DNA of 64,000 nt, taken from assembly GCA_002011735.1 (NCBI GenBank), contig MTOQ01000058.1, positions 91 to 64,090 on the forward strand, given 5' to 3'. Shown in pieces: positions 811-62,838 of this stretch (its first letter is position 1; every line of letters begins with the position of its first letter). This DNA comes from Nitrospirae bacterium JdFR-81 (GTDB lineage Bacteria; Nitrospirota; Thermodesulfovibrionia; UBA6902). The notes beneath the pieces are model-generated. The model was not told where the DNA came from, did not search any database, and saw only the letters and a program-made list of their open reading frames with translations. The translations under genes and the position numbers were made by a program.

Positions 811-1296
811 CTATCTCCTTCTGGTTATCTCAATCCCCCACCCTCTTAATCTGTCAATGATGTGGCTTATGAGGGTGTCAAACTGCATCTTTATCTCTTC
901 TGAGAGTTCTGTCCCTGTCTCCAGGGACCCTGGCTGGATCCCTATGAGGCATATCTCTTTAAGGGGGAGCCCCTTCATCCTTATGGCAAAGAACAGGTCA
1001 GAGAGCCCTATCTGGTGGACCGATATCTTGGAGCCCAGGATGGCAGGGATGCTGTCGCCATCTATAAGCTTGATCGTTCCAGGTGGCTTCTTGAGGTCAA
1101 CCGCATCGATTATGATGAGCCTTTCGATATCTTCAAGGAACGGCAAAAGGTCAAGGCCCATTGTGCCACCATCAATGAGCCTCACGCTATCAGGGAACCT
1201 GTATCTCTCCTTCAGCTCCTTTATTACATGAACCCCAACCCCATCATCGCCTGTGAGCAGGTTGCCTACACCCAGTATGCCAGCCCTCACTCCCAC
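811..1296 (-). CDS. Hydrogenase maturation endopeptidase (HyaD/HybD/HoxM family)
   Basis: The N-terminal GVGNLLTGDDGVG motif and the ~160 aa size fit the family. It is the last gene of the hydrogenase operon. Confidence 0.8.
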   Translation of the reverse strand: MGVRAGILGVGNLLTGDDGVGVHVIKELKERYRFPDSVRLIDGGTMGLDLLPFLEDIERLIIIDAVDLKKPPGTIKLIDGDSIPAILGSKISVHQIGLSDLFFAIRMKGLPLKEICLIGIQPGSLETGTELSEEIKMQFDTLISHIIDRLRGWGIEITRRR

Positions 1297-1949
1297 TCTT
1301 TGCCTGTCACAAACTTATAGCCACTGAAGATCGAGCCCATCAGTCCGTTTCTCTCCTTCAGGTCTGCATACCATGCCATGTAGATGTGCAGGAGGGCATA
1401 TGCCAGAATGACATACATGCCAAGATGATGGAAGAGTCTTATGGTCTGAAGGTGCATCACACCTGTAACCCATCCACCAAGGAGGATCCATATCTTGCCT
1501 GAATGATTCAGTGAATACATGGCGAATCCAGAGACTATCTGGAAGAGGAAGATGAGAAAGAGGATGAAATACACAACCCCTGCCAGCGCGGTATGGCCGA
1601 CTGCATAGGGGGGCTTACGGATTATGAAGAGATAGAACTTGATGGCATCAGCAATGTCACGAAGCTTCCTTGATGAAAAAGGGAACCACACCCTGTAGCT
1701 TGCGTATCTGTTGCCCATGAACGCCCAGTAGAGCCTGATTATTATGCTCATCATAAAGGTATAGGCTGCTATGAAGTGGATGAACCTCATCCATCCCATT
1801 ATGTACTGTTTTGATGAGATTGCATGGATGAAGGGGTTGCCGATGTAAAAGCCTGTGATCGAGAGGGTCAGCACGCAGAGGACATTGATCCAGTGCGTAA
1901 ATCTGACAGGAAACTCCCATGCATATACCCTCAGTCTCTCATTCTTCAT
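1287..1949 (-). CDS. Ni/Fe-hydrogenase b-type cytochrome subunit
   Basis: A 220 aa polytopic membrane protein with conserved His residues, sitting immediately downstream of the hydrogenase large subunit (HyaC/HupC-like context). Confidence 0.75.
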   Translation of the reverse strand: MKNERLRVYAWEFPVRFTHWINVLCVLTLSITGFYIGNPFIHAISSKQYIMGWMRFIHFIAAYTFMMSIIIRLYWAFMGNRYASYRVWFPFSSRKLRDIADAIKFYLFIIRKPPYAVGHTALAGVVYFILFLIFLFQIVSGFAMYSLNHSGKIWILLGGWVTGVMHLQTIRLFHHLGMYVILAYALLHIYMAWYADLKERNGLMGSIFSGYKFVTGKEWE

Positions 1950-1961
1950 AAAGGCCTCCCT

Positions 1962-3710
1962 TCAGATCACCTTTATCCTTGTTACCTCCCTGCCCTCGGG
2001 GTCAAGGACATGCACTGCACATGCCATACAGGGGTCAAAGGAATGGACCGTCCTCAATATCTCAACAGGCTGTTCAGGATCTGCAACAGGTGTCCCGATG
2101 AGGGCCGCCTCATAGGGACCCCTCTGATCCTTTGCATCCCTTGGAGAGCCATTCCAGGTGCTCGGGACAACACACTGGTAGTTCTTGATCCTCCTGCCCT
2201 CTATACTCAACCAGTGCCCGAGGGCCCCCCTCGGTGCCTCATGAAATCCATAGCCCCTTGCCTCCTTTGGCCATTCTGATGGGTCCCACCCCTCTCTACT
2301 GTGAATCCTCAGGTCACCCTTCTTCATATTCTCTGCAAGCTGCCCAAGCCATACAGGTATCTGCTCTGCCGTTACAAGGGTCTCAACCCCCCTTGCTGCA
2401 ACCCTTCCAAGGGTTGAAAACAGGGCCGAGGGGCCAACCCCCAGTTTCTGAAGCACACTATCTATGACCTCTTTCACCCTCTTGTGTCCTGATGCATACG
2501 CAACAAGCATCCTTGCAAGTGGGCCCACCTCCATGGGTTTGTCATCATACCTTGGTGCCTTGAGCCATGAATACTTCCCGTCTGTGTCAAGATACTCATA
2601 AGGTGGTTGTGGTCCGGTATACCTATAATTGGTCTCACCATCCCATGGGTGCTTTGAGGTCTTATTACCATCTGAGTATTCATACCAGGAATGTGTCACA
2701 TATTCGGTTATCTTTTCATGATCCACCTTATGGACCTTCGAGAGGTCCTTATTCAGTATGATACCCCTTGGAAGCCACAGGTTCTCTGTATTGCTGACAT
2801 TATCATTCGGGAATTCACCGTATGCAAGAAAGTTTCCAACGCCTCCTCCATAGCCTGCCCATTCCTTGTAGAAGGACGCGACTGCGAGCAGATCGGGGAT
2901 ATAGACCTTCTTGACAAACTCCAGGGCCTTCTCTGCAAGACCTGTCATAAAGGCGATGCTTCCTGCATTCAGGGCATTCTGACTATTGGGATCAATAGGT
3001 ATGGACATACCACCAACGATATAGGTCTGTGCATGGGGATTCTTTGCACCAAGCAATGCCTGCATCTTTATGACATCCCTCTGCCAGTCAAGGGCCTCAA
3101 GGTAGTGTGCCACTGCCATGAGGTTTGCCTCTGGAGGGAGCTTGTACGCAGGATGACCCCAGTATGCATTTGCAAATGGACCAAGCTGGCCCCTCTCAAC
3201 GAAGGCCTTCAGTTTATTCTGCACGCCCTTGAAATACTCTGTGCTCGACTTTGGCCAGTCAGATATGGACTGCGCGAGTGAGGATGTCTTCTTAGGGTCT
3301 GCCTTCAAGGCACTTACGATATCCACCCAGTCAAGGGCGTGGAGGTGATAGAAGTGGATCACATGGTCTTGGACATACTGTATCCCAGTGATAAGATTCC
3401 TTATGAGTCTTGCATTGTCAGGGATGGTTATGTTTAATGCATTCTCGACCGCTCTCACCGAGGCGGTTGCGTGAACCGTTGTTCAGACCCCTCATATACG
3501 CTGGGTGAAATACCATGCATCCCTTGGATCCCTATTCTTGAGTATGAGCTCGATCCCCCTGAACATGGTGCTTGAGCTCCAGGCATCAACCACCCTTCCA
3601 CCCTCCACCTTTGCCTCGATCCTCAGGTGGCCCTCGATCCTTGTTATGGGATCAATGACTATCTTCTTAGCCAACTCATTCACCTCCCTTTTCTTCCTTT
3701 TTTCCTTCAA
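1962..3710 (-). CDS. [NiFe] hydrogenase large subunit with two in-frame TGA codons at the N-terminal Ni-ligand cysteine positions
   Basis: Track ORFs 3492-3710 and 1962-3458 share one frame. The reverse-complement translation reads ...AWYFTQRI-TGA-GV-TGA-TTVHATASVRAVENAL... where the consensus is RxCGxCxxxH. The minus-strand UGA codons correspond to plus-strand 'tca' at 3492-3494 and 3483-3485. The C-terminal DPCMACAVH motif is intact, and ITRIEGH and HFYHLHALDWVD are present. The true start may be the internal GTG near 3683. Confidence 0.8.
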
Positions 3711-4773
3711 ATATGGCCCTTCCTATACCATGGATCAGGAGACCTGCTGCGGTGGCCACTGCAAGGCCTGCCCCGACCTTATCCGCGGTGCTCTCCACCC
3801 CAAACCCTGGCGGATTTGGCAGCCTCTTATAAAATGGGCTCATCTTGTCCCAGAAGTATGGTTCAGCACACCCAACACAACCATGGCCTGCCTGGACAGG
3901 CCAGCTTGTGCCTTCGTTCCATTTAATGGTTGGACAGTTATGGAAGGTCTCGGGCCCTTTACAGCCCATCTCATAAAGGCACCATCCCCTTCTGTGTCCC
4001 TCATCACCCCATCTCCTCACAAACTGCCCTGCATCAAAGTGCGCCCTCCTCTCGCAATTGTCATGGATTCTCTTGCCATATGCAAAATAGGGCCTCCCCA
4101 GTTTATCGGTGAGGGGGAGCGACCCGAATGTTAAGTAATGAACAATACACGCAGTGAGATTCTCTACATTCATGGGACAACCTGGCAGATTGATCACCGT
4201 TGCATTAGGCACCGCCTCCTTGACGCCTACTGCACCTGTAGGATTTGGCTGTGCTGCAGGGATGCCGCCATAGGCAGCACATGTACCCACAGCTATTGTG
4301 GCAAGTGCATTGCCACACACCTCTCTTACGATCTCAACGGCTGACCTGCCTCCGATACAACAATACACACCCCCATCCTTCAATGGAATGGAACCCTCTA
4401 CCACCACAAAGTATTTACCCTTATTGTTTTTAACCACATCCATAAGTGACTTCTCTGCCTGAAAACCTGCAGGCGCCATGATGGTCTCGTGATAATCCAC
4501 AGAGAGGATATCAAGGATGATCTGTGCAACAGTGGGCTTGGTTGCCCTTAGGAGAGACTCTGTATCTCCGGCGCAGTCCTGAAACTCAAGCCACACAAGA
4601 TAGGGCTTTTTTGCATTGGTGAGTGCCTCTGCCATCCTTGGTGCAAATGAGGCAGGAAGGGCAAGCAGTGCACTCATTGCAGTGCAGAACTTCATAAAAT
4701 CCCTGCGCGATACCTTTTTGTTGAGGAAGGAAAGGGTCTCTGTGGAGGGGTCTTTCTCTAATACAGGGTCCAT
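3676..4773 (-). CDS. [NiFe] hydrogenase small subunit with twin-arginine signal peptide
   Basis: The SRRDFMKFC Tat motif is present. Cys clusters match small-subunit Fe-S ligands (CxGCxE, GCPP-like, HxxCPxxKW, CxGCxEP). The C-terminal TM anchor is typical of membrane-bound group-1 enzymes. Confidence 0.85.
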   Translation of the reverse strand: MDPVLEKDPSTETLSFLNKKVSRRDFMKFCTAMSALLALPASFAPRMAEALTNAKKPYLVWLEFQDCAGDTESLLRATKPTVAQIILDILSVDYHETIMAPAGFQAEKSLMDVVKNNKGKYFVVVEGSIPLKDGGVYCCIGGRSAVEIVREVCGNALATIAVGTCAAYGGIPAAQPNPTGAVGVKEAVPNATVINLPGCPMNVENLTACIVHYLTFGSLPLTDKLGRPYFAYGKRIHDNCERRAHFDAGQFVRRWGDEGHRRGWCLYEMGCKGPETFHNCPTIKWNEGTSWPVQAGHGCVGCAEPYFWDKMSPFYKRLPNPPGFGVESTADKVGAGLAVATAAGLLIHGIGRAIFEGKKEEKGGE

Positions 4774-23312: not shown

Positions 23313-24215
23313 ATGATACCTTATATTATCGCCCTTATAATGGCCTCCCTTATCTCCCTGATTCCCCAATCTTCCCGTGCGGAGAAGGCAAAAACGATTG
23401 ATGAGCTTGTAAAGATGTATGATATCACCCGGTGTATAGGGTGCCACAGGGACAAGTATGAGGAGTGGAAGGACTCGACCATGGGCAATTCGGTTGTTGA
23501 CCCCCGTGTCCTGAGGGGCTGGAGGACGTTCATAAGGCTTGAGCTTGATCAGGAGCCCACCCTCTCAAGGAAGGATCTGACCATATGCCTCAACTGTCAT
23601 GTGCCCCAGATAAAGGACGCCACACCAGAACTTGTTGAGCATATCGCGGAACTCGTGATAATGGCCGTTGAGGATAAAGATGAGGGGAAAAGGGAATACG
23701 CAAGGAAGGAGCTTTCAAAGCTCAATCTTAACTGTCTCAGTTGTCATCATTTAAGGGCAAGGGGGTTTGAGGGTGAGCCAGAGGAGGGGGTGCTTTACGG
23801 CCCCAGGGAGATAACCTCCTCTCCACATGAGGGCATAGGCTTCAAGACCAAAAGGTCAGCCCTAATGTCAAAGTCCGATTTCTGTGCACAGTGTCATCAC
23901 TGCCCACCCAGCGTCCCGTGGGAACAGTGTCCGACACTTTATACCTCATATGTTGAGGGCTTCCTTGAGAAGGGCAGGAAGGAGACCTGTCAGGACTGTC
24001 ACATGAGGGATGTTGACAGATCAAAGAAGTCAGGAGGCTGGAACCACAGATTCTATGGACCTGATGATATCGAATTTCTCAAGTCCGCGATCACACTGAA
24101 CGTAAGGGCAAGGCCCACAAGGTATATTGATATGTACGAGGGCAGGTTCATTCCCGCAGTGGTCCTTGAGGTTGAACTCACAAATAATGCAGGCCATGTC
24201 ATGCCCCATGGCTGA
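23313..24215 (+). CDS. Pentaheme c-type cytochrome
   Basis: A signal peptide and five CxxCH motifs (CIGCH, CLNCH, CLSCH, CAQCH, CQDCH). It ends at a TGA that is in frame with the next ORF. Confidence 0.75.
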   Translation: MIPYIIALIMASLISLIPQSSRAEKAKTIDELVKMYDITRCIGCHRDKYEEWKDSTMGNSVVDPRVLRGWRTFIRLELDQEPTLSRKDLTICLNCHVPQIKDATPELVEHIAELVIMAVEDKDEGKREYARKELSKLNLNCLSCHHLRARGFEGEPEEGVLYGPREITSSPHEGIGFKTKRSALMSKSDFCAQCHHCPPSVPWEQCPTLYTSYVEGFLEKGRKETCQDCHMRDVDRSKKSGGWNHRFYGPDDIEFLKSAITLNVRARPTRYIDMYEGRFIPAVVLEVELTNNAGHVMPHG

Positions 24216-24218
24216 GCA

Positions 24219-24536
24219 GTGATGCCAAGGGCGGTGCTGGAGGTCACCGTGAAGGATGATAAAAAAGAGGTGGTGTTTGCAAGAGAGCACGAGTTTACGG
24301 TCAACGATCTCTATTTTAAGGGTGGGAAACAGGTTGCAATGGCAGAATGGGATATAACAGCCACTGAACACTTTGACCTCGGTGTCAGACCCATTGAGCC
24401 ATATAAGTTTACATATGTAATACCACTAAGCCCTGACACGGCCTCTATTGAGGCAATCGCCCAGTTCAGATATCTCTATTCCCGTGATAAGACATTCGAT
24501 GTTCAGAGGGCCTCACATAAAGTCGTCATAGAGTAA
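24219..24536 (+). CDS. Hypothetical protein, in frame with and possibly a C-terminal continuation of the cytochrome
   Basis: It shares the frame of 23313-24215, separated only by TGA and GCA. Its N-terminus (PRAVLEVTVKDD) repeats the cytochrome's C-terminus (PAVVLEVELTNN). Confidence 0.4.
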   Translation: MMPRAVLEVTVKDDKKEVVFAREHEFTVNDLYFKGGKQVAMAEWDITATEHFDLGVRPIEPYKFTYVIPLSPDTASIEAIAQFRYLYSRDKTFDVQRASHKVVIE

Positions 24537-59988: not shown

Positions 59989-62838
59989 GTGATGGGACGG
60001 ATAACACCATTGATCAAGGGCATACTTATATGTACAACAATACTCCTACTCGCCCTTTATGCCTTTATAAGGTCCCCCTATCTGACAGACTCTGTTGAGT
60101 GGCTCCTGAATAGATATGCAGGTATCGAGATAGAGATAGGCTCTATAAATCTCTCAAGAAGGACAACGATCAGGGATGTGATGGTTAGAATGCCCGACGG
60201 CCCACTCCCCCTCTTAAAGATCAGGATGGTGAGAATCCGCATGAACCCCTTGCGCCTTCTAAATGGAGAGATCGACGGGATAGAGCTGACAGAGCCTGAG
60301 ATCACCCTTGATCTTACGTCTTCAGGGGGTGGTAACAAGGGGATGGGACGGTCCATAAGGGTGAATACCCTGAGGATCGATGGAGGAAGGATGATGGTAA
60401 GGACAAGGGAGGCTGAATACATCCATATAAGATCAATAAACCTTGTGATGAAGGAGAAGACACCAGGGAAGGTCATGGCAAAGGGTAGCCTTTATATCGA
60501 GGAGCTCAGGACAGATATACCAGTGGATATGACATTTGACCTCGGAAAGATGGAGATAGAGGACGGCCATCTCCACATGGTATATGATGAACTCGGGGCT
60601 GTCACAGGTGGAAGGGTGACAGGTGGTCTGGATATGGACATCACCATCTCCACAGAGGATGGACTGACAGCCATCATAGATGCCCTTTATAAGGATATCG
60701 TTTACATCGGCAGAAGGGCATTAAGTGCAGGGGGTGGACGGATGAGACTCCTCCTGAGATTCTCATCCGATCTTGAGGATGTGCGGTTCCAGGTAAATGG
60801 CAGTGGTTCCTATACCCTGTATGGAAGGGAGGACAATTACAGCCTCGACCTCAAGGGCTCATACGGTGTGAAGAAGGGGAGGATGGTGATAGATGAGGCG
60901 TCATTAAACTCAACACTCTATGGCAATCTCACACTCAGAGGCCGTATAGAGGACATACCATCAGGCAGGGTGAGCCTCGACCTTACCCTGAAGACCAGAG
61001 GGCCTGAGTTAGGGAGGCTCGGAGAGGTCTTTAAGGTGCAGGGGGAGACAGATGCCCGTATCCGTTCGGTCTTCTTGATAAAGGGGGAGGGGGATAGACC
61101 AGATATCAAAGGGAGGGTGCAGATCAAGGGGAGGTATTTTAAAGGGGAAGGGATCGATATCAGGGGCATCAGGGCCATGATTCCTGTTGAATACAGGGAT
61201 GGCTCAATTCGTATAAAAGGGGCCTCCATGGTTATGGATGAGGCAGAATACCTATCAGGCGACAGGGGATACCTGCTGAAGGGTTCTTTAGAGATAAGCC
61301 CTCAACTCAGCATGGACATACCTGATGGCCTTATAAAGGCCCATATCAGGCTGGCCCTGAGGGATGGAGGCCTCTCTACACCTGATGAATCACTGGTGGC
61401 CGAGGGACTGAGGATAGAGGCAGATATGGATGCAGAATCCTCATATCCAGCAGATGAGGTAGGCTTCACAATATCAGGGATGGCGACAGGCCTTGAACTG
61501 CTGGTCGGGAGTTTTTATGGAGACTTTACCCATAAAGATATAAAATTCTCCTCCACGGGCAGATATTCCATGGATAGGGATCTGCTCGACATAAGACAGG
61601 CAGGGATAGACCTCCAGGATATCGGCACCTTCACCTTTTCAGGCAATATCTCCAGGATCACCAGCTCTCCTGCTATTGATGCAGAACTGATCATTAAAGG
61701 ATTAAGGAACGATAATGTATATGACCTCTTCATAAAGGATACATTCAGGGAATCAATTCCCCTCCCGGGCAGACTGAATACAGATGGTAGGACCTCCATA
61801 AGACTTTCATTAAAGAGTTCAGGAGGTCTTACCCAGGTGGATGGCATGATCTATCTTGATGATGTGGATATAAGGGGTGATGGATTCTCCATAGAGGGTA
61901 TTGATCTGGCCATGCCTGTGGAGATCTCATACCCTCTAACAGAGCAGACAGGGGTGCCCTCCTATGGATCATTGAGGATAGGGGCCATATCGATGGGTGG
62001 TGTAGAGATAGATGGACTCTCACTCTCTCCCACGATCTGGCATAATGAGCTCATATTCAGGGATGACATACTGGTCCCGGTCCTGGGTGGAGAGGTGGTA
62101 TTAAGGGGTGTCAGGTTTGGAGGGATAATGGATGATGAGCCTGTCCTGAGCTTCTCATCCGAGATAAGGGGCGTGGACCTCCAGATGCTCACAAGGGCAC
62201 TCGATATACAGAGGTTCGGAGGGAACATATCAGGGAGCATCCCGAAGGCAAGGCTCTCTCGTAACAGCCTGACAGTAGATGGCGAGGTCGTGATTCGTGC
62301 CTTTGGAGGCGAGATCCGTATAACCGAACTATCGGTGAATAACCTGTTCAGCAATATACCATCGATAAGGACATCCATCCAGCTTAATGATATAGACCTT
62401 GGTATGCTGACCGATACATTTGAATTCGGCAAGATCACAGGGGTGATGAATGGTTATGTGAGAGACCTCGTGATCACCAATGGTGAGGTCGAGAGGTTTG
62501 ACATCTCCCTTGAGAGCATAAAAAAGAGGGGGGTCAGCCAGTGGATCAGTGTAAAGGCATTAAAGAAGATATCCATCCTCGGCTCAGGAGGCCCGGCATC
62601 CATCCTCGACAGGGGTATATACCGATTATTCAAGAGATACAGATACGAGAAGATGGGCATCAGGGGAGGGCTGAGGAACGACAGGATGGTGCTCCACGGA
62701 ATAATGAGGCAGGGCGACAGGGAATATATCGTGAAAGGAGGCCTCCTGCCCCCGAAGGTCGATGTCATAAGTTACACACAGGAGATCTCCTTCAAGGAGC
62801 TCATAAGGAGGCTCAGGAGGATAAGAGAGGTGGAGTAA
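59989..62838 (+). CDS. AsmA/TamB-like large envelope-biogenesis protein
   Basis: 949 aa with an N-terminal TM anchor and a long Gly/Asp-rich predicted beta body. The family call rests on overall architecture only. Confidence 0.45.
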   Translation: MMGRITPLIKGILICTTILLLALYAFIRSPYLTDSVEWLLNRYAGIEIEIGSINLSRRTTIRDVMVRMPDGPLPLLKIRMVRIRMNPLRLLNGEIDGIELTEPEITLDLTSSGGGNKGMGRSIRVNTLRIDGGRMMVRTREAEYIHIRSINLVMKEKTPGKVMAKGSLYIEELRTDIPVDMTFDLGKMEIEDGHLHMVYDELGAVTGGRVTGGLDMDITISTEDGLTAIIDALYKDIVYIGRRALSAGGGRMRLLLRFSSDLEDVRFQVNGSGSYTLYGREDNYSLDLKGSYGVKKGRMVIDEASLNSTLYGNLTLRGRIEDIPSGRVSLDLTLKTRGPELGRLGEVFKVQGETDARIRSVFLIKGEGDRPDIKGRVQIKGRYFKGEGIDIRGIRAMIPVEYRDGSIRIKGASMVMDEAEYLSGDRGYLLKGSLEISPQLSMDIPDGLIKAHIRLALRDGGLSTPDESLVAEGLRIEADMDAESSYPADEVGFTISGMATGLELLVGSFYGDFTHKDIKFSSTGRYSMDRDLLDIRQAGIDLQDIGTFTFSGNISRITSSPAIDAELIIKGLRNDNVYDLFIKDTFRESIPLPGRLNTDGRTSIRLSLKSSGGLTQVDGMIYLDDVDIRGDGFSIEGIDLAMPVEISYPLTEQTGVPSYGSLRIGAISMGGVEIDGLSLSPTIWHNELIFRDDILVPVLGGEVVLRGVRFGGIMDDEPVLSFSSEIRGVDLQMLTRALDIQRFGGNISGSIPKARLSRNSLTVDGEVVIRAFGGEIRITELSVNNLFSNIPSIRTSIQLNDIDLGMLTDTFEFGKITGVMNGYVRDLVITNGEVERFDISLESIKKRGVSQWISVKALKKISILGSGGPASILDRGIYRLFKRYRYEKMGIRGGLRNDRMVLHGIMRQGDREYIVKGGLLPPKVDVISYTQEISFKELIRRLRRIREVE

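Follow-up and report, generated by a model that had tools for sequence, protein, structure and literature searches.

A probable bacterial SECIS hairpin downstream of two in-frame UGA codons in a Group-1 [NiFe] hydrogenase large-subunit gene

The window analysed here, a stretch of DNA taken at its full length of 64 kb, has a bacterial gene context (GroEL, Pst/PhoU/PhoBR and SecDF), on account of which a SECIS of the archaeal type, located in a 3'-UTR, was set aside. By Pfam assignment, an operon on its minus strand encodes the small subunit, the large subunit, a cytochrome b subunit and a HyaD-type protease of a hydrogenase, and two in-frame UGA codons interrupt the large-subunit gene:

3676..4773, minus strand: hydrogenase small-subunit gene (Pfam NiFe_hyd_SSU_C and Oxidored_q6)
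1962..3674, minus strand: Group-1 [NiFe] hydrogenase large-subunit gene (570 codons from a TTG start at 3674)
1949..1287 (within 811..1949), minus strand: cytochrome b subunit (Pfam Ni_hydr_CYTB)
1296..811, minus strand: HycI/HyaD-type maturation protease (Pfam HycI)
3492..3494, minus strand: UGA#1, codon 61 of the large subunit, replacing the first Cys of the R-I-C-G-V-C motif
3483..3485, minus strand: UGA#2, codon 64, replacing the second Cys of the motif (translation and alignment with 3MYR)

The best PDB matches of the large subunit are Group-1 enzymes, the closest solved structure being that of A. vinosum (3MYR, E 9e-224), in which the first Cys of QRICGVCT aligns with UGA#1. The N-terminal motif of the window protein reads R-I-U-G-V-U, such that both Ni-ligand cysteine positions of R-x-C-G-x-C carry an in-frame TGA; the second of these cysteines has been described as the Ni-Fe bridging ligand (PMC13582414). 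Translation shows an intact frame on either side of both TGAs and a C-terminal motif (DPCMACAVH) with Cys at both motif positions. TGA is otherwise a normal stop codon in the host genome; a genome-wide change in the meaning of UGA (genetic codes 4 or 25) was rejected, as TGA terminates 15 of 43 Pfam-supported ORFs, and the small-subunit gene directly upstream is itself ended by TGA. Public gene calls start at a GTG (3458) downstream of both codons and give a truncated product of 498 residues; the same truncation, to 498 or 504 residues, affects 62 of the best 120 protein clusters in public annotation. Hydrogenase surveys therefore miss or misclassify such genes.

A stable hairpin is predicted by RNAfold in the coding region downstream of UGA#2, and the GTG used in public gene calls falls within its loop:

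3448..3467, minus strand: candidate SECIS hairpin, ACCGCCUC[GGU]GAG(A)GCGGU (RNAfold)
3457..3459, minus strand: apical loop GGU, the middle G being nt 37 from the U of UGA#1

The hairpin has 8 bp, one bulged A and a triloop, GGU (5' arm, 3467..3460; loop, 3459..3457; 3' arm, 3456..3448; bulged A, 3453), and has a predicted energy of -9.4 kcal/mol for the 20-mer alone and -10.1 kcal/mol in context. A preliminary description of this DNA had proposed the pairing of ACCGC (3467..3463) with GCGGU (3452..3448), and had named a stable fold beforehand as a check; both the pairing and the stability are borne out by the prediction. The loop of 10 nt given there is too large, since RNAfold adds CUC/GAG to the stem and leaves three loop nucleotides and the bulged A, and its distance of about 21 nt after UGA#2 is revised to 15 nt past the A of that codon for the start of the stem and 23 nt for the loop. 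Measured from UGA#1, the stem starts at 26 nt and the loop lies at 32 nt.

The consensus model of Zhang and Gladyshev for bacterial SECIS elements (bSECIS), as summarised in PMC13188914, has an apical loop of 3–9 nt on an upper stem of 4–16 bp, at least one G in loop positions 1–2 with the pattern G[G|U], a spacing of 16–37 nt and an energy at or below -7.5 kcal/mol. The window hairpin agrees with the model in all four respects (loop and stem, loop G, spacing and energy) for both UGAs, with the 32-nt spacing from UGA#1 still within range. No SECIS family of Rfam matched at E<=10 on 3380..3540, or at the gathering score across the window; this outcome of the covariance-model comparison proposed in the preliminary description is uninformative and does not count against function, because the bacterial SECIS elements of different genes are unlike one another (published reviews).

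Taken by itself, the window hairpin is no better than chance. Dinucleotide shuffles gave z-scores of -0.57 (101 nt) and +0.41 (60 nt), which are not significant, and shuffle thermodynamics was dropped as a discriminating test. Synonymous recodings of the same peptide yield a SECIS-compliant hairpin of equal or greater stability in 10.9% of cases (p about 0.11) and a hairpin at or below -7.5 kcal/mol in 26%. The hairpin owes its significance to the comparison of homologs alone.

TGA is found at the position of UGA#1 in at least 65 homologous loci and at that of UGA#2 in at least 132, of which 65 carry both codons (UxxU, or UU) and 67 the second only (CxxU, or CU). Among the matches listed, the nearest loci are from Thermodesulfovibrionia/Nitrospirota metagenome-assembled genomes, and the UxxU and CxxU Group-1 genes belong to Nitrospirota, Chloroflexota, Methylomirabilota, Thermodesulfobacteriota and others. 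The metagenome search was limited by its pattern to genes with TGA at the second position; none of the 80 genome loci is of the UxxC type. At least 121 distinct UGA-bearing homologs (at least 59 UxxU and at least 62 CxxU) form the Sec-type set, which was compared with 55 Cys-type (CC) homologs.

A bSECIS-compliant hairpin is present in 92% of approximately 123 scored Sec-type sequences, nearly all at the 23-nt spacing, versus 36% of the 55 Cys-type sequences, at scattered spacings. The start of the loop is fixed in 102/125 Sec-type sequences, with the window loop starting at the same place as in the other hairpin classes, and a G occurs within loop positions 1–2 in 123/125 Sec-type versus 29/55 Cys-type sequences. 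In the alignment columns, the loop G (nt 37), with which Val codon 13 begins, is the same in 121/121 sequences of the Sec type. The stem is maintained by compensatory changes: codons 11 and 15 covary (AGC/GCU, UGC/GCA, GCC/GGC and GCU/AGC), non-synonymous combinations included (A, C or S at codon 11 with A, G or S at codon 15), and pair 31–45 occurs as AU, UA and GC in 37, 35 and 7 cases, respectively. One clade variant (L001/L185, AGG UCG) keeps the 8 bp with the bulge shifted by one position. Overall, 82% of cells are paired versus 31–57% in slid controls, and none of 500 shuffles reached the observed pairing score. The full set of six pairs is present in 77/121 Sec-type sequences and in 1/55 Cys-type sequences, and codon choice differs sharply between UU and CC genes, for Arg (AGA/CGA, 56/59 versus 3/55) and for Val (GUG, 58/59 versus 9/55). 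The Fisher and chi-square values take no account of how closely the sequences are related. In three nested Cys revertants (L018, L077 and L051), the stems are broken. The covariation in UGA orthologs and the loss on Cys reversion that the bSECIS model also calls for are thus both seen, with statistics that are not fully corrected for phylogeny, and conservation, the second check named beforehand, turned out in favor of the hairpin, which is kept in UGA homologs and degraded in Cys-type genes. The minimum free energy of the whole 48-nt region did not separate Sec-type from Cys-type sequences, the latter being more GC-rich, and was replaced by position-specific hairpin tests. RNAalifold on the 121 pooled Sec-type sequences returned an empty consensus, because different clades use different registers; class-wise alifold recovers the hairpin. 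From this comparison, the minus-strand hairpin 3467..3448 is quite probably a bSECIS situated within the reading frame for this Group-1 [NiFe] hydrogenase large subunit.

Genes of the UU and CU types are intermixed in the tree and share one hairpin, whose distance from UGA#2 does not differ between them; the element is therefore best regarded as anchored on UGA#2. A single SECIS anchored in this way most likely serves both codons, reaching UGA#1, 9 nt upstream, in UxxU genes, and the same single-SECIS reading was given by Takano et al. 2026 for the Group-4 UXXU hydrogenases (PMC13582414). The preliminary description had left the choice between one element and an unusual mechanism; with the shared hairpin and constant distance, one element is the simplest reading, for now provisionally. 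In mechanistic terms, SelB.GTP.Sec-tRNA(Sec) would bind the GGU loop and the bulge, and Sec would be delivered when a UGA enters the ribosomal A site; given the mRNA entry channel of the ribosome, the stem would still be folded when either UGA is decoded. Translation would then yield a [NiFeSe] enzyme whose N-terminal motif has Sec at both positions and whose C-terminal motif has Cys at both. No selA, selB, selC or selD gene lies within the 64-kb window. A second selenoprotein gene does, an MccSep homolog with a UGA at 24213, whose candidate hairpin matches that of the hydrogenase in architecture and in its 23-nt spacing; Sec insertion into MccSep was shown by mass spectrometry in Geobacter.

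Three further features near the UGA codons could bear on how UGA#1 is read:

3495..3495, minus strand: A at -1, in the Ile AUA codon before UGA#1, enriched in UxxU genes
3477..3477, minus strand: G at +18, in the third position of Thr codon 6 (ACG), more frequent in UxxU genes
3469..3488, minus strand: weak small hairpin GU.UGAAC[AACG]GUUCA.GC, containing UGA#2 (RNAfold)

The A at -1 is present in 53/62 UU versus 10/63 CU sequences, the G at +18 in 58/62 UU versus 22/63 CU and 24/55 CC sequences, and U21 in 42/62 UU versus 30/63 CU sequences. These UxxU constraints at -1 and +18 are unaccounted for by a pure one-element model. They could instead indicate two signals, with the main hairpin serving UGA#2 only and UGA#1 being read through the AUA codon in the P site, the G at +18 and/or the small hairpin (3488..3469). 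In favor of such a division, besides the enrichments, the 12 phylogenetically independent UU/CU pairs split 7:1 for the A and 6:0 for the G, and all five core pairs of the small hairpin are complete in 42/62 UU (68%), 30/63 CU (48%) and 19/55 CC (35%) sequences. However, the sign tests on these splits are marginal (p=0.07 and p=0.03, respectively), and UU genes exist without the A or the G (L111, L117 and L020). The small hairpin is weak (-2.7 kcal/mol), is also predicted in Cys-type genes, and is largely a palindrome inherent in the coding sequence of V-U-T-T-V-H-A, with six of its pairs coming free from codon positions 1–2 of V-C/U-T-T-V-H-A; its loop, 11 nt past UGA#1 and lacking G in positions 1–2, departs from the bSECIS model in both spacing and loop G. 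It was rejected as a dedicated SECIS for UGA#1 for these reasons. Alternative upstream hairpins (nt 15–20/25–30 and 17–21/27–31) were also rejected, being present in subsets only (9/62 and 20/62 UU sequences, respectively). Overall, a separate signal for UGA#1 seems unlikely.

A bipartite signal that retains the single SECIS for both codons may be proposed tentatively, and with considerable doubt. The SECIS would sit at the organism's usual 23-nt distance from UGA#2 and be combined with the UxxU-specific context (AUA in the P site and G at +18), rather than being simply reused, and the same SelB-SECIS complex would act again, at 32 nt, within three codons. Such decoding would give a naturally occurring Ni(Sec)2(Cys)2 active site, with Se as Ni-Fe bridging ligand, in a large, multi-phylum clade of uptake hydrogenases.

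One or both UGAs might also be read as Cys, with SelB bringing in a SelC*-type tRNA(Cys) (tRNA-ReC) via the same SECIS, in which case the mature enzyme would be an ordinary [NiFe] hydrogenase or a single-Sec enzyme. Genes for selC* tRNA(Cys) are known from Thermodesulfovibrio and Nitrospirae (PMC5389517), and tRNA-ReC is enriched in genomes with UXXU Group-4 hydrogenases, a caveat stated by Takano et al. (PMC13582414). Against this, ARAGORN and Rfam find only tRNA-Met in the window, the window contains the MccSep homolog, for which the Geobacter data indicate Sec, and there is no evident benefit of a UGA with a SECIS merely for the insertion of Cys. Reading as Cys is judged improbable, and the hairpin would still be a SECIS under it.

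A hairpin that is simply a by-product of partly self-complementary Ala-Ser-Val-Arg-Ala codons, with no recoding role, would fit the insignificant z-scores, the recoding frequencies (11% for an equal hairpin, 26% at or below -7.5 kcal/mol) and the 36% of Cys-type genes with a bSECIS-compliant hairpin at some place in the region. It is very hard to reconcile with a loop position fixed only in UGA-bearing genes, compensatory double changes that include non-synonymous ones, an extreme Arg and Val codon choice confined to Sec-type genes and the decay of the stem in nested Cys revertants, and its probability is correspondingly very small. A pseudogene or assembly errors, to which the 498-residue public gene calls might point, are already refuted by the recurrence of the same two TGAs in at least 65 independent loci of several phyla and of a single TGA in at least 67 more, exactly on Cys ligand codons and with the frame intact around them.

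Natural [NiFeSe] hydrogenases with Sec in the C-terminal motif are known. The genes described here comprise at least 59 distinct UxxU and at least 62 distinct CxxU Group-1 genes across several phyla. The UxxU variant is widespread in metagenomes and, for Group-1, undescribed in the literature searched. E. coli Hyd-1 with Sec engineered at the equivalent positions (C76U and C79U) retained activity with changed O2 behaviour, and a natural double-Sec enzyme would therefore be a ready test case for Se as both terminal and bridging Ni ligand. Additionally, the interleaved CxxU/UxxU series with one hairpin would constitute a natural experiment on the reach and repeat use of a bacterial SECIS.

Like the prototype bSECIS of E. 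coli fdhF, the window element is a stem-loop in the coding region just 3' of a Sec UGA, and it resembles bSECIS elements in its small loop with G followed by G/U, 8-bp upper stem and single bulged nucleotide; it differs in accompanying a pair of UGAs at a 9-nt interval. In the fdhF SECIS the spacing of the loop is about 18 nt, compared with 23 and 32 nt in the window hairpin. The classical Group-1a [NiFeSe] hydrogenases of Desulfomicrobium baculatum (1CC1) and D. vulgaris Hildenborough (5JSH) are likewise periplasmic or membrane-bound Group-1 enzymes with a Sec Ni ligand. In these proteins, however, Sec stands in place of the first Cys of the C-terminal motif (DPUxxCxxH), whereas the window protein has DPCMAC there and its Sec codons are N-terminal; both are distant from it, aligning over the C-terminal two-thirds only (E about 1e-95, against 9e-224 for 3MYR). 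According to PMC13188914, an arrangement of two Sec codons with two sense codons between them is also predicted in other bacterial selenoproteins, namely a Prx-like thiol:disulfide oxidoreductase, an FmdB-family protein and a putative mercuric-reductase-like metal-binding protein. These belong to redox or metal-binding CxxC families and are not hydrogenases.

The Group-4 [NiFeSe] hydrogenases (CXXU, UXXC and UXXU types; Takano et al. 2026, PMC13582414) share with the window enzyme the placement of Sec in the N-terminal Ni motif. According to the same study, UXXU had not been recognized before, and the only sequences known from other groups were two of Group 1, noted in 2011, and one of Group 3, all of them N-terminal CXXU; N-terminal UXXU was reported there, in September 2026, only for Group-4 enzymes. 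As in the window group, CXXU and UXXU types of Group 4 share one conserved downstream hairpin; Sec types retain its loop G and Cys types have lost it, and in Group 4e this G opens a Val GUG codon in whose place Cys types encode Ile and other residues (PMC13582414). The window enzyme differs from them in being, by its operon and PDB matches, a Group-1 membrane-bound uptake hydrogenase rather than an energy-converting multisubunit complex.

The hydrogenase operon, all on the minus strand, comprises the following features.

4773..3676, minus strand, hydrogenase small subunit
3674 (TTG start) to 1962 (stop), minus strand, hydrogenase large subunit
3494..3492, minus strand, TGA at codon 61 of the large subunit (UGA#1)
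3485..3483, minus strand, TGA at codon 64 of the large subunit (UGA#2)
3467..3448, minus strand, probable SECIS hairpin ACCGCCUC[GGU]GAG(A)GCGGU, fold predicted by RNAfold
1949..1287, minus strand, cytochrome b
1296..811, minus strand, HycI/HyaD-type maturation protease

The large subunit reads ...YFTQRI*GV*TTVHATASVRAVENAL... around the UGAs and carries the C-terminal motif DPCMACAVH. The nearest solved structure is the membrane-bound [NiFe] hydrogenase of Allochromatium vinosum (PDB code 3MYR, E = 9e-224), and because its QRICGVCT aligns residue for residue with the motif bearing the UGAs, the two UGA codons take the place of both cysteines that serve as N-terminal Ni ligands in a Group-1 enzyme. 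The classical [NiFeSe] enzymes (1CC1, 5JSH), in contrast, are much more remote (E ~1e-95, partial alignment).

The ACCGC...GCGGU stem of the preliminary description is present on the minus strand; however, its geometry of a 5-bp stem with a 10-nt loop gives way in RNAfold to 8 bp with a GGU triloop and a bulged A at 3453. The placement downstream of the second UGA stands, but the loop starts 23 nt after UGA#2 (32 nt after UGA#1) rather than about 21 nt. A stable fold is indeed predicted (-9.4 kcal/mol for the 20-mer), and the proposed comparison with covariance models gave no match of the hairpin region to Rfam families. By itself the hairpin is unremarkable: the dinucleotide-shuffle z-scores are -0.57 and +0.41, and when codons 5-20 were synonymously recoded with the codon usage of the same operon, a SECIS-compliant hairpin of at least equal stability arose in 10.9% of recodings. 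The peptide A-S-V-R-A-V is prone to a self-folding coding sequence.

Full-length relatives with cysteine at both positions (Cys-type) have about 569 residues in a protein search, and 62 of the 120 best protein clusters (P0001-P0120) are shortened to 498 or 504 residues exactly at the UGA site, because gene callers restart beyond the in-frame UGAs; the 498-residue ORF starts at a GTG within the hairpin loop. The Sec-type clade, with TGA at both positions (UxxU, UU) or the second only (CxxU, CU), is systematically mis-annotated in public protein sets. Among the matches listed, a genome scan gave 80 loci, with TGA at both positions in 21 (MAGs of Nitrospirota/Thermodesulfovibrionia, Chloroflexota/Anaerolineae, Thermoflexus, Methylomirabilia and Thermodesulfobacteriota), cysteine followed by TGA in 4, and cysteine at both (CxxC, CC) in 55. 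A metagenome scan with the pattern TGHGGNGTNTGAACNACNGTNCA, which leaves the hairpin region outside, matched at least 120 stretches. The pooled loci comprise at least 65 UxxU, 67 CxxU and 55 CxxC genes, and the distinct 60-nt Sec-type sequences number at least 121 (at least 59 UU and at least 62 CU).

The hairpin is conserved in homologs that share the UGA codons, as the preliminary description had anticipated, with compensatory changes, and is broken in nested Cys-type genes. Counted from UGA#1, codon 11 and the UC of Ser12 pair with the GA of Arg14 and codon 15, closing the loop as C-GUG-A/C. Codon 11 is the perfect reverse complement of codon 15 in each of four forms (AGC/GCU, UGC/GCA, GCC/GGC and GCU/AGC), which alter the residues encoded (A/C/S at codon 11, A/G/S at codon 15); these forms alternate within clades of a neighbour-joining tree and therefore reflect several independent events. 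In the clade of the window, the register is shifted by one (GCC UCG GUG AGA GCG) with the loop starting at the same nucleotide, and the sole variant, AGG UCG (L001, L185), still has 8 bp, its bulge displaced by one position. Three more clades have different hairpins at the same place.

UGACCUC[GGC]GAGGUCA, loop Val changed to Ala
ACGCACUG[GCUU]CAGUGCGU, loop 5 nt further upstream
CUCGGUC[CGGGC]GAUCGAG

The first, a perfect stem of 7-8 bp, belongs to six CxxU loci (L097, L102, L112, L118, L164 and L194), in which the otherwise conserved loop Val (S-V-R) is Ala (GCG); here the RNA structure seems to have outweighed the conserved residue.

In the commonest register, 82% of cells are paired across the 121 Sec-type sequences, versus 31-57% with the 3' partners slid; pair 31-45 is AU in 37, UA in 35 and GC in 7, and both the pairing score and the covariation score exceeded those of all 500 shuffles. 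All six pairs are present in 77/121 Sec-type versus 1/55 Cys-type sequences, Arg14 is AGA/CGA in 56/59 UU versus 3/55 CC, and Val13 is GUG in 58/59 UU, where Cys types mostly have Ile. In 102 of 125 Sec-type sequences, the best single hairpin has its loop start 26 nt beyond the U of UGA#2; among Cys-type sequences this position is scattered. The bacterial SECIS (bSECIS) consensus (PMC13188914) specifies a 3-9 nt loop capping a 4-16 bp stem, a G at loop position 1 or 2, a spacing of 16-37 nt and an energy of -7.5 kcal/mol or lower; 92% of about 123 scored Sec-type sequences agree with all four criteria, nearly all at 23-nt spacing, whereas the figure for Cys-type sequences is 36%, and their spacings scatter. 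The correction of these counts for relatedness is incomplete. Whole-region MFE did not separate Sec-type from Cys-type sequences, and pooled RNAalifold of the 121 gave no consensus because clade registers differ; class-wise alifold recovered the hairpin.

Three Cys-type genes (L018, L077 and L051) are nested among Sec-type genes in the tree, with broken stems in all three. They are apparent Sec-to-Cys revertants, which suggests that Sec was lost, rather than repeatedly gained, in these lineages. In L018 and L077 the first Cys codon is still preceded by AUA, and codon 6 is still ACG. The consensus fit, covariation and Sec-type specificity support the earlier SECIS reading, and the hairpin, fixed in place, is very probably a functional recoding element.

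A second candidate selenoprotein gene lies in the window.

23313..24536, plus strand, multihaem cytochrome c ORF, MccSep homolog, in-frame TGA at 24213..24215
24231..24250, plus strand, candidate hairpin GCGGUGCU[GGA]GG(U)CACCGU in this ORF

MccSep is a multihaem polysulfide reductase selenoprotein, whose Geobacter peptide VEMTNHAGHSIPDGUPTPNR is MS-verified (PMC13510729). The TGA context VELTNNAGHVMPHG*AV (extended, VELTNNAGHVMPHG*AVMPR) matches this Sec peptide. The candidate hairpin has the architecture of the hydrogenase SECIS (23-nt spacing, GGN triloop, 8 bp, single 3' bulge), and the RNAfold MFE of the region favours another fold. The shared spacing fits 23 nt as the distance preferred in the source organism, leaving UGA#1 at 32 nt, which would be a longer, still permitted spacing.

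The tree intermingles UxxU with CxxU genes, and both types have the same hairpin at equal distance from UGA#2; therefore, the element is anchored on UGA#2, and UGA#1 is gained or lost without its remodelling. On balance, we favour the hairpin alone serving both UGAs. SelB.GTP.Sec-tRNA(Sec) would bind the loop and bulge, and UGA#1 and then UGA#2 would be decoded through this complex. The stem starts 26 nt downstream of UGA#1 and 15 nt downstream of UGA#2, and it could remain folded on the ribosome at both decoding events.

Two context signals, strongly favoured in UxxU genes, set these apart from CxxU genes with the same hairpin (loci L001-L199): A at -1 (Ile codon AUA, 3495, minus strand; 53/62 UU versus 10/63 CU) and G at +18 (sixth codon, Thr ACG, 3477, minus strand; 58/62 versus 22/63). 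In 12 phylogenetically independent UU/CU pairs, they split 7:1 (p = 0.07) and 6:0 (p = 0.03), respectively. A structure or mechanism for the two was sought and none was assignable; they keep in play a model in which UGA#1 has its own determinant besides the main hairpin, which we regard as unlikely. A small hairpin containing UGA#2 (3488..3469, minus strand), mostly a palindrome inherent to the coding sequence, was rejected as weak (-2.7 kcal/mol) and outside the SECIS criteria.

We regard it as improbable that Cys, not Sec, is inserted at one or both UGAs; this would rely on a SelC*-type tRNA, a kind documented in Thermodesulfovibrio and Nitrospirae (PMC5389517). Genome-wide reassignment of UGA is ruled out, since TGA is the ordinary stop of 15 of the 43 Pfam-supported ORFs in the window, including the small-subunit gene directly upstream. 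The remaining genes are bacterial (GroEL, Pst/PhoU/PhoBR, SecDF, RecJ, RNase R); no sel genes or Sec tRNA were found within the 64 kb, and four long ORFs were without a Pfam match at the thresholds used.

59989..62838, plus strand, 949 residues
4910..5590, minus strand, 226 residues
20229..20891, minus strand, 220 residues
22447..22965, minus strand, 172 residues

The hairpin very probably belongs to the bacterial SECIS class, within a large and routinely mis-annotated clade of Group-1 UxxU/CxxU hydrogenases. Given the UGAs, a SECIS element as such is to be expected; of more interest are how large the clade is, how cleanly its CxxU and UxxU genes form a natural series, and the context signals particular to UxxU genes. 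The literature searched yielded nothing on UXXU/CXXU in Group-1 hydrogenases as such; N-terminal CXXU had been noted in 2011 in two sequences of Group 1 and one of Group 3 (PMC13582414). Engineered E. coli Hyd-1 keeps 3% of its native activity as C76U and 13% as C79U, and both variants become O2-sensitive. UXXC and UXXU, termed 'previously unrecognized', were reported in September 2026 for Group 4 only (PMC13582414), and for Group-4 UXXU hydrogenases Takano et al. (2026) reached the same one-element conclusion.
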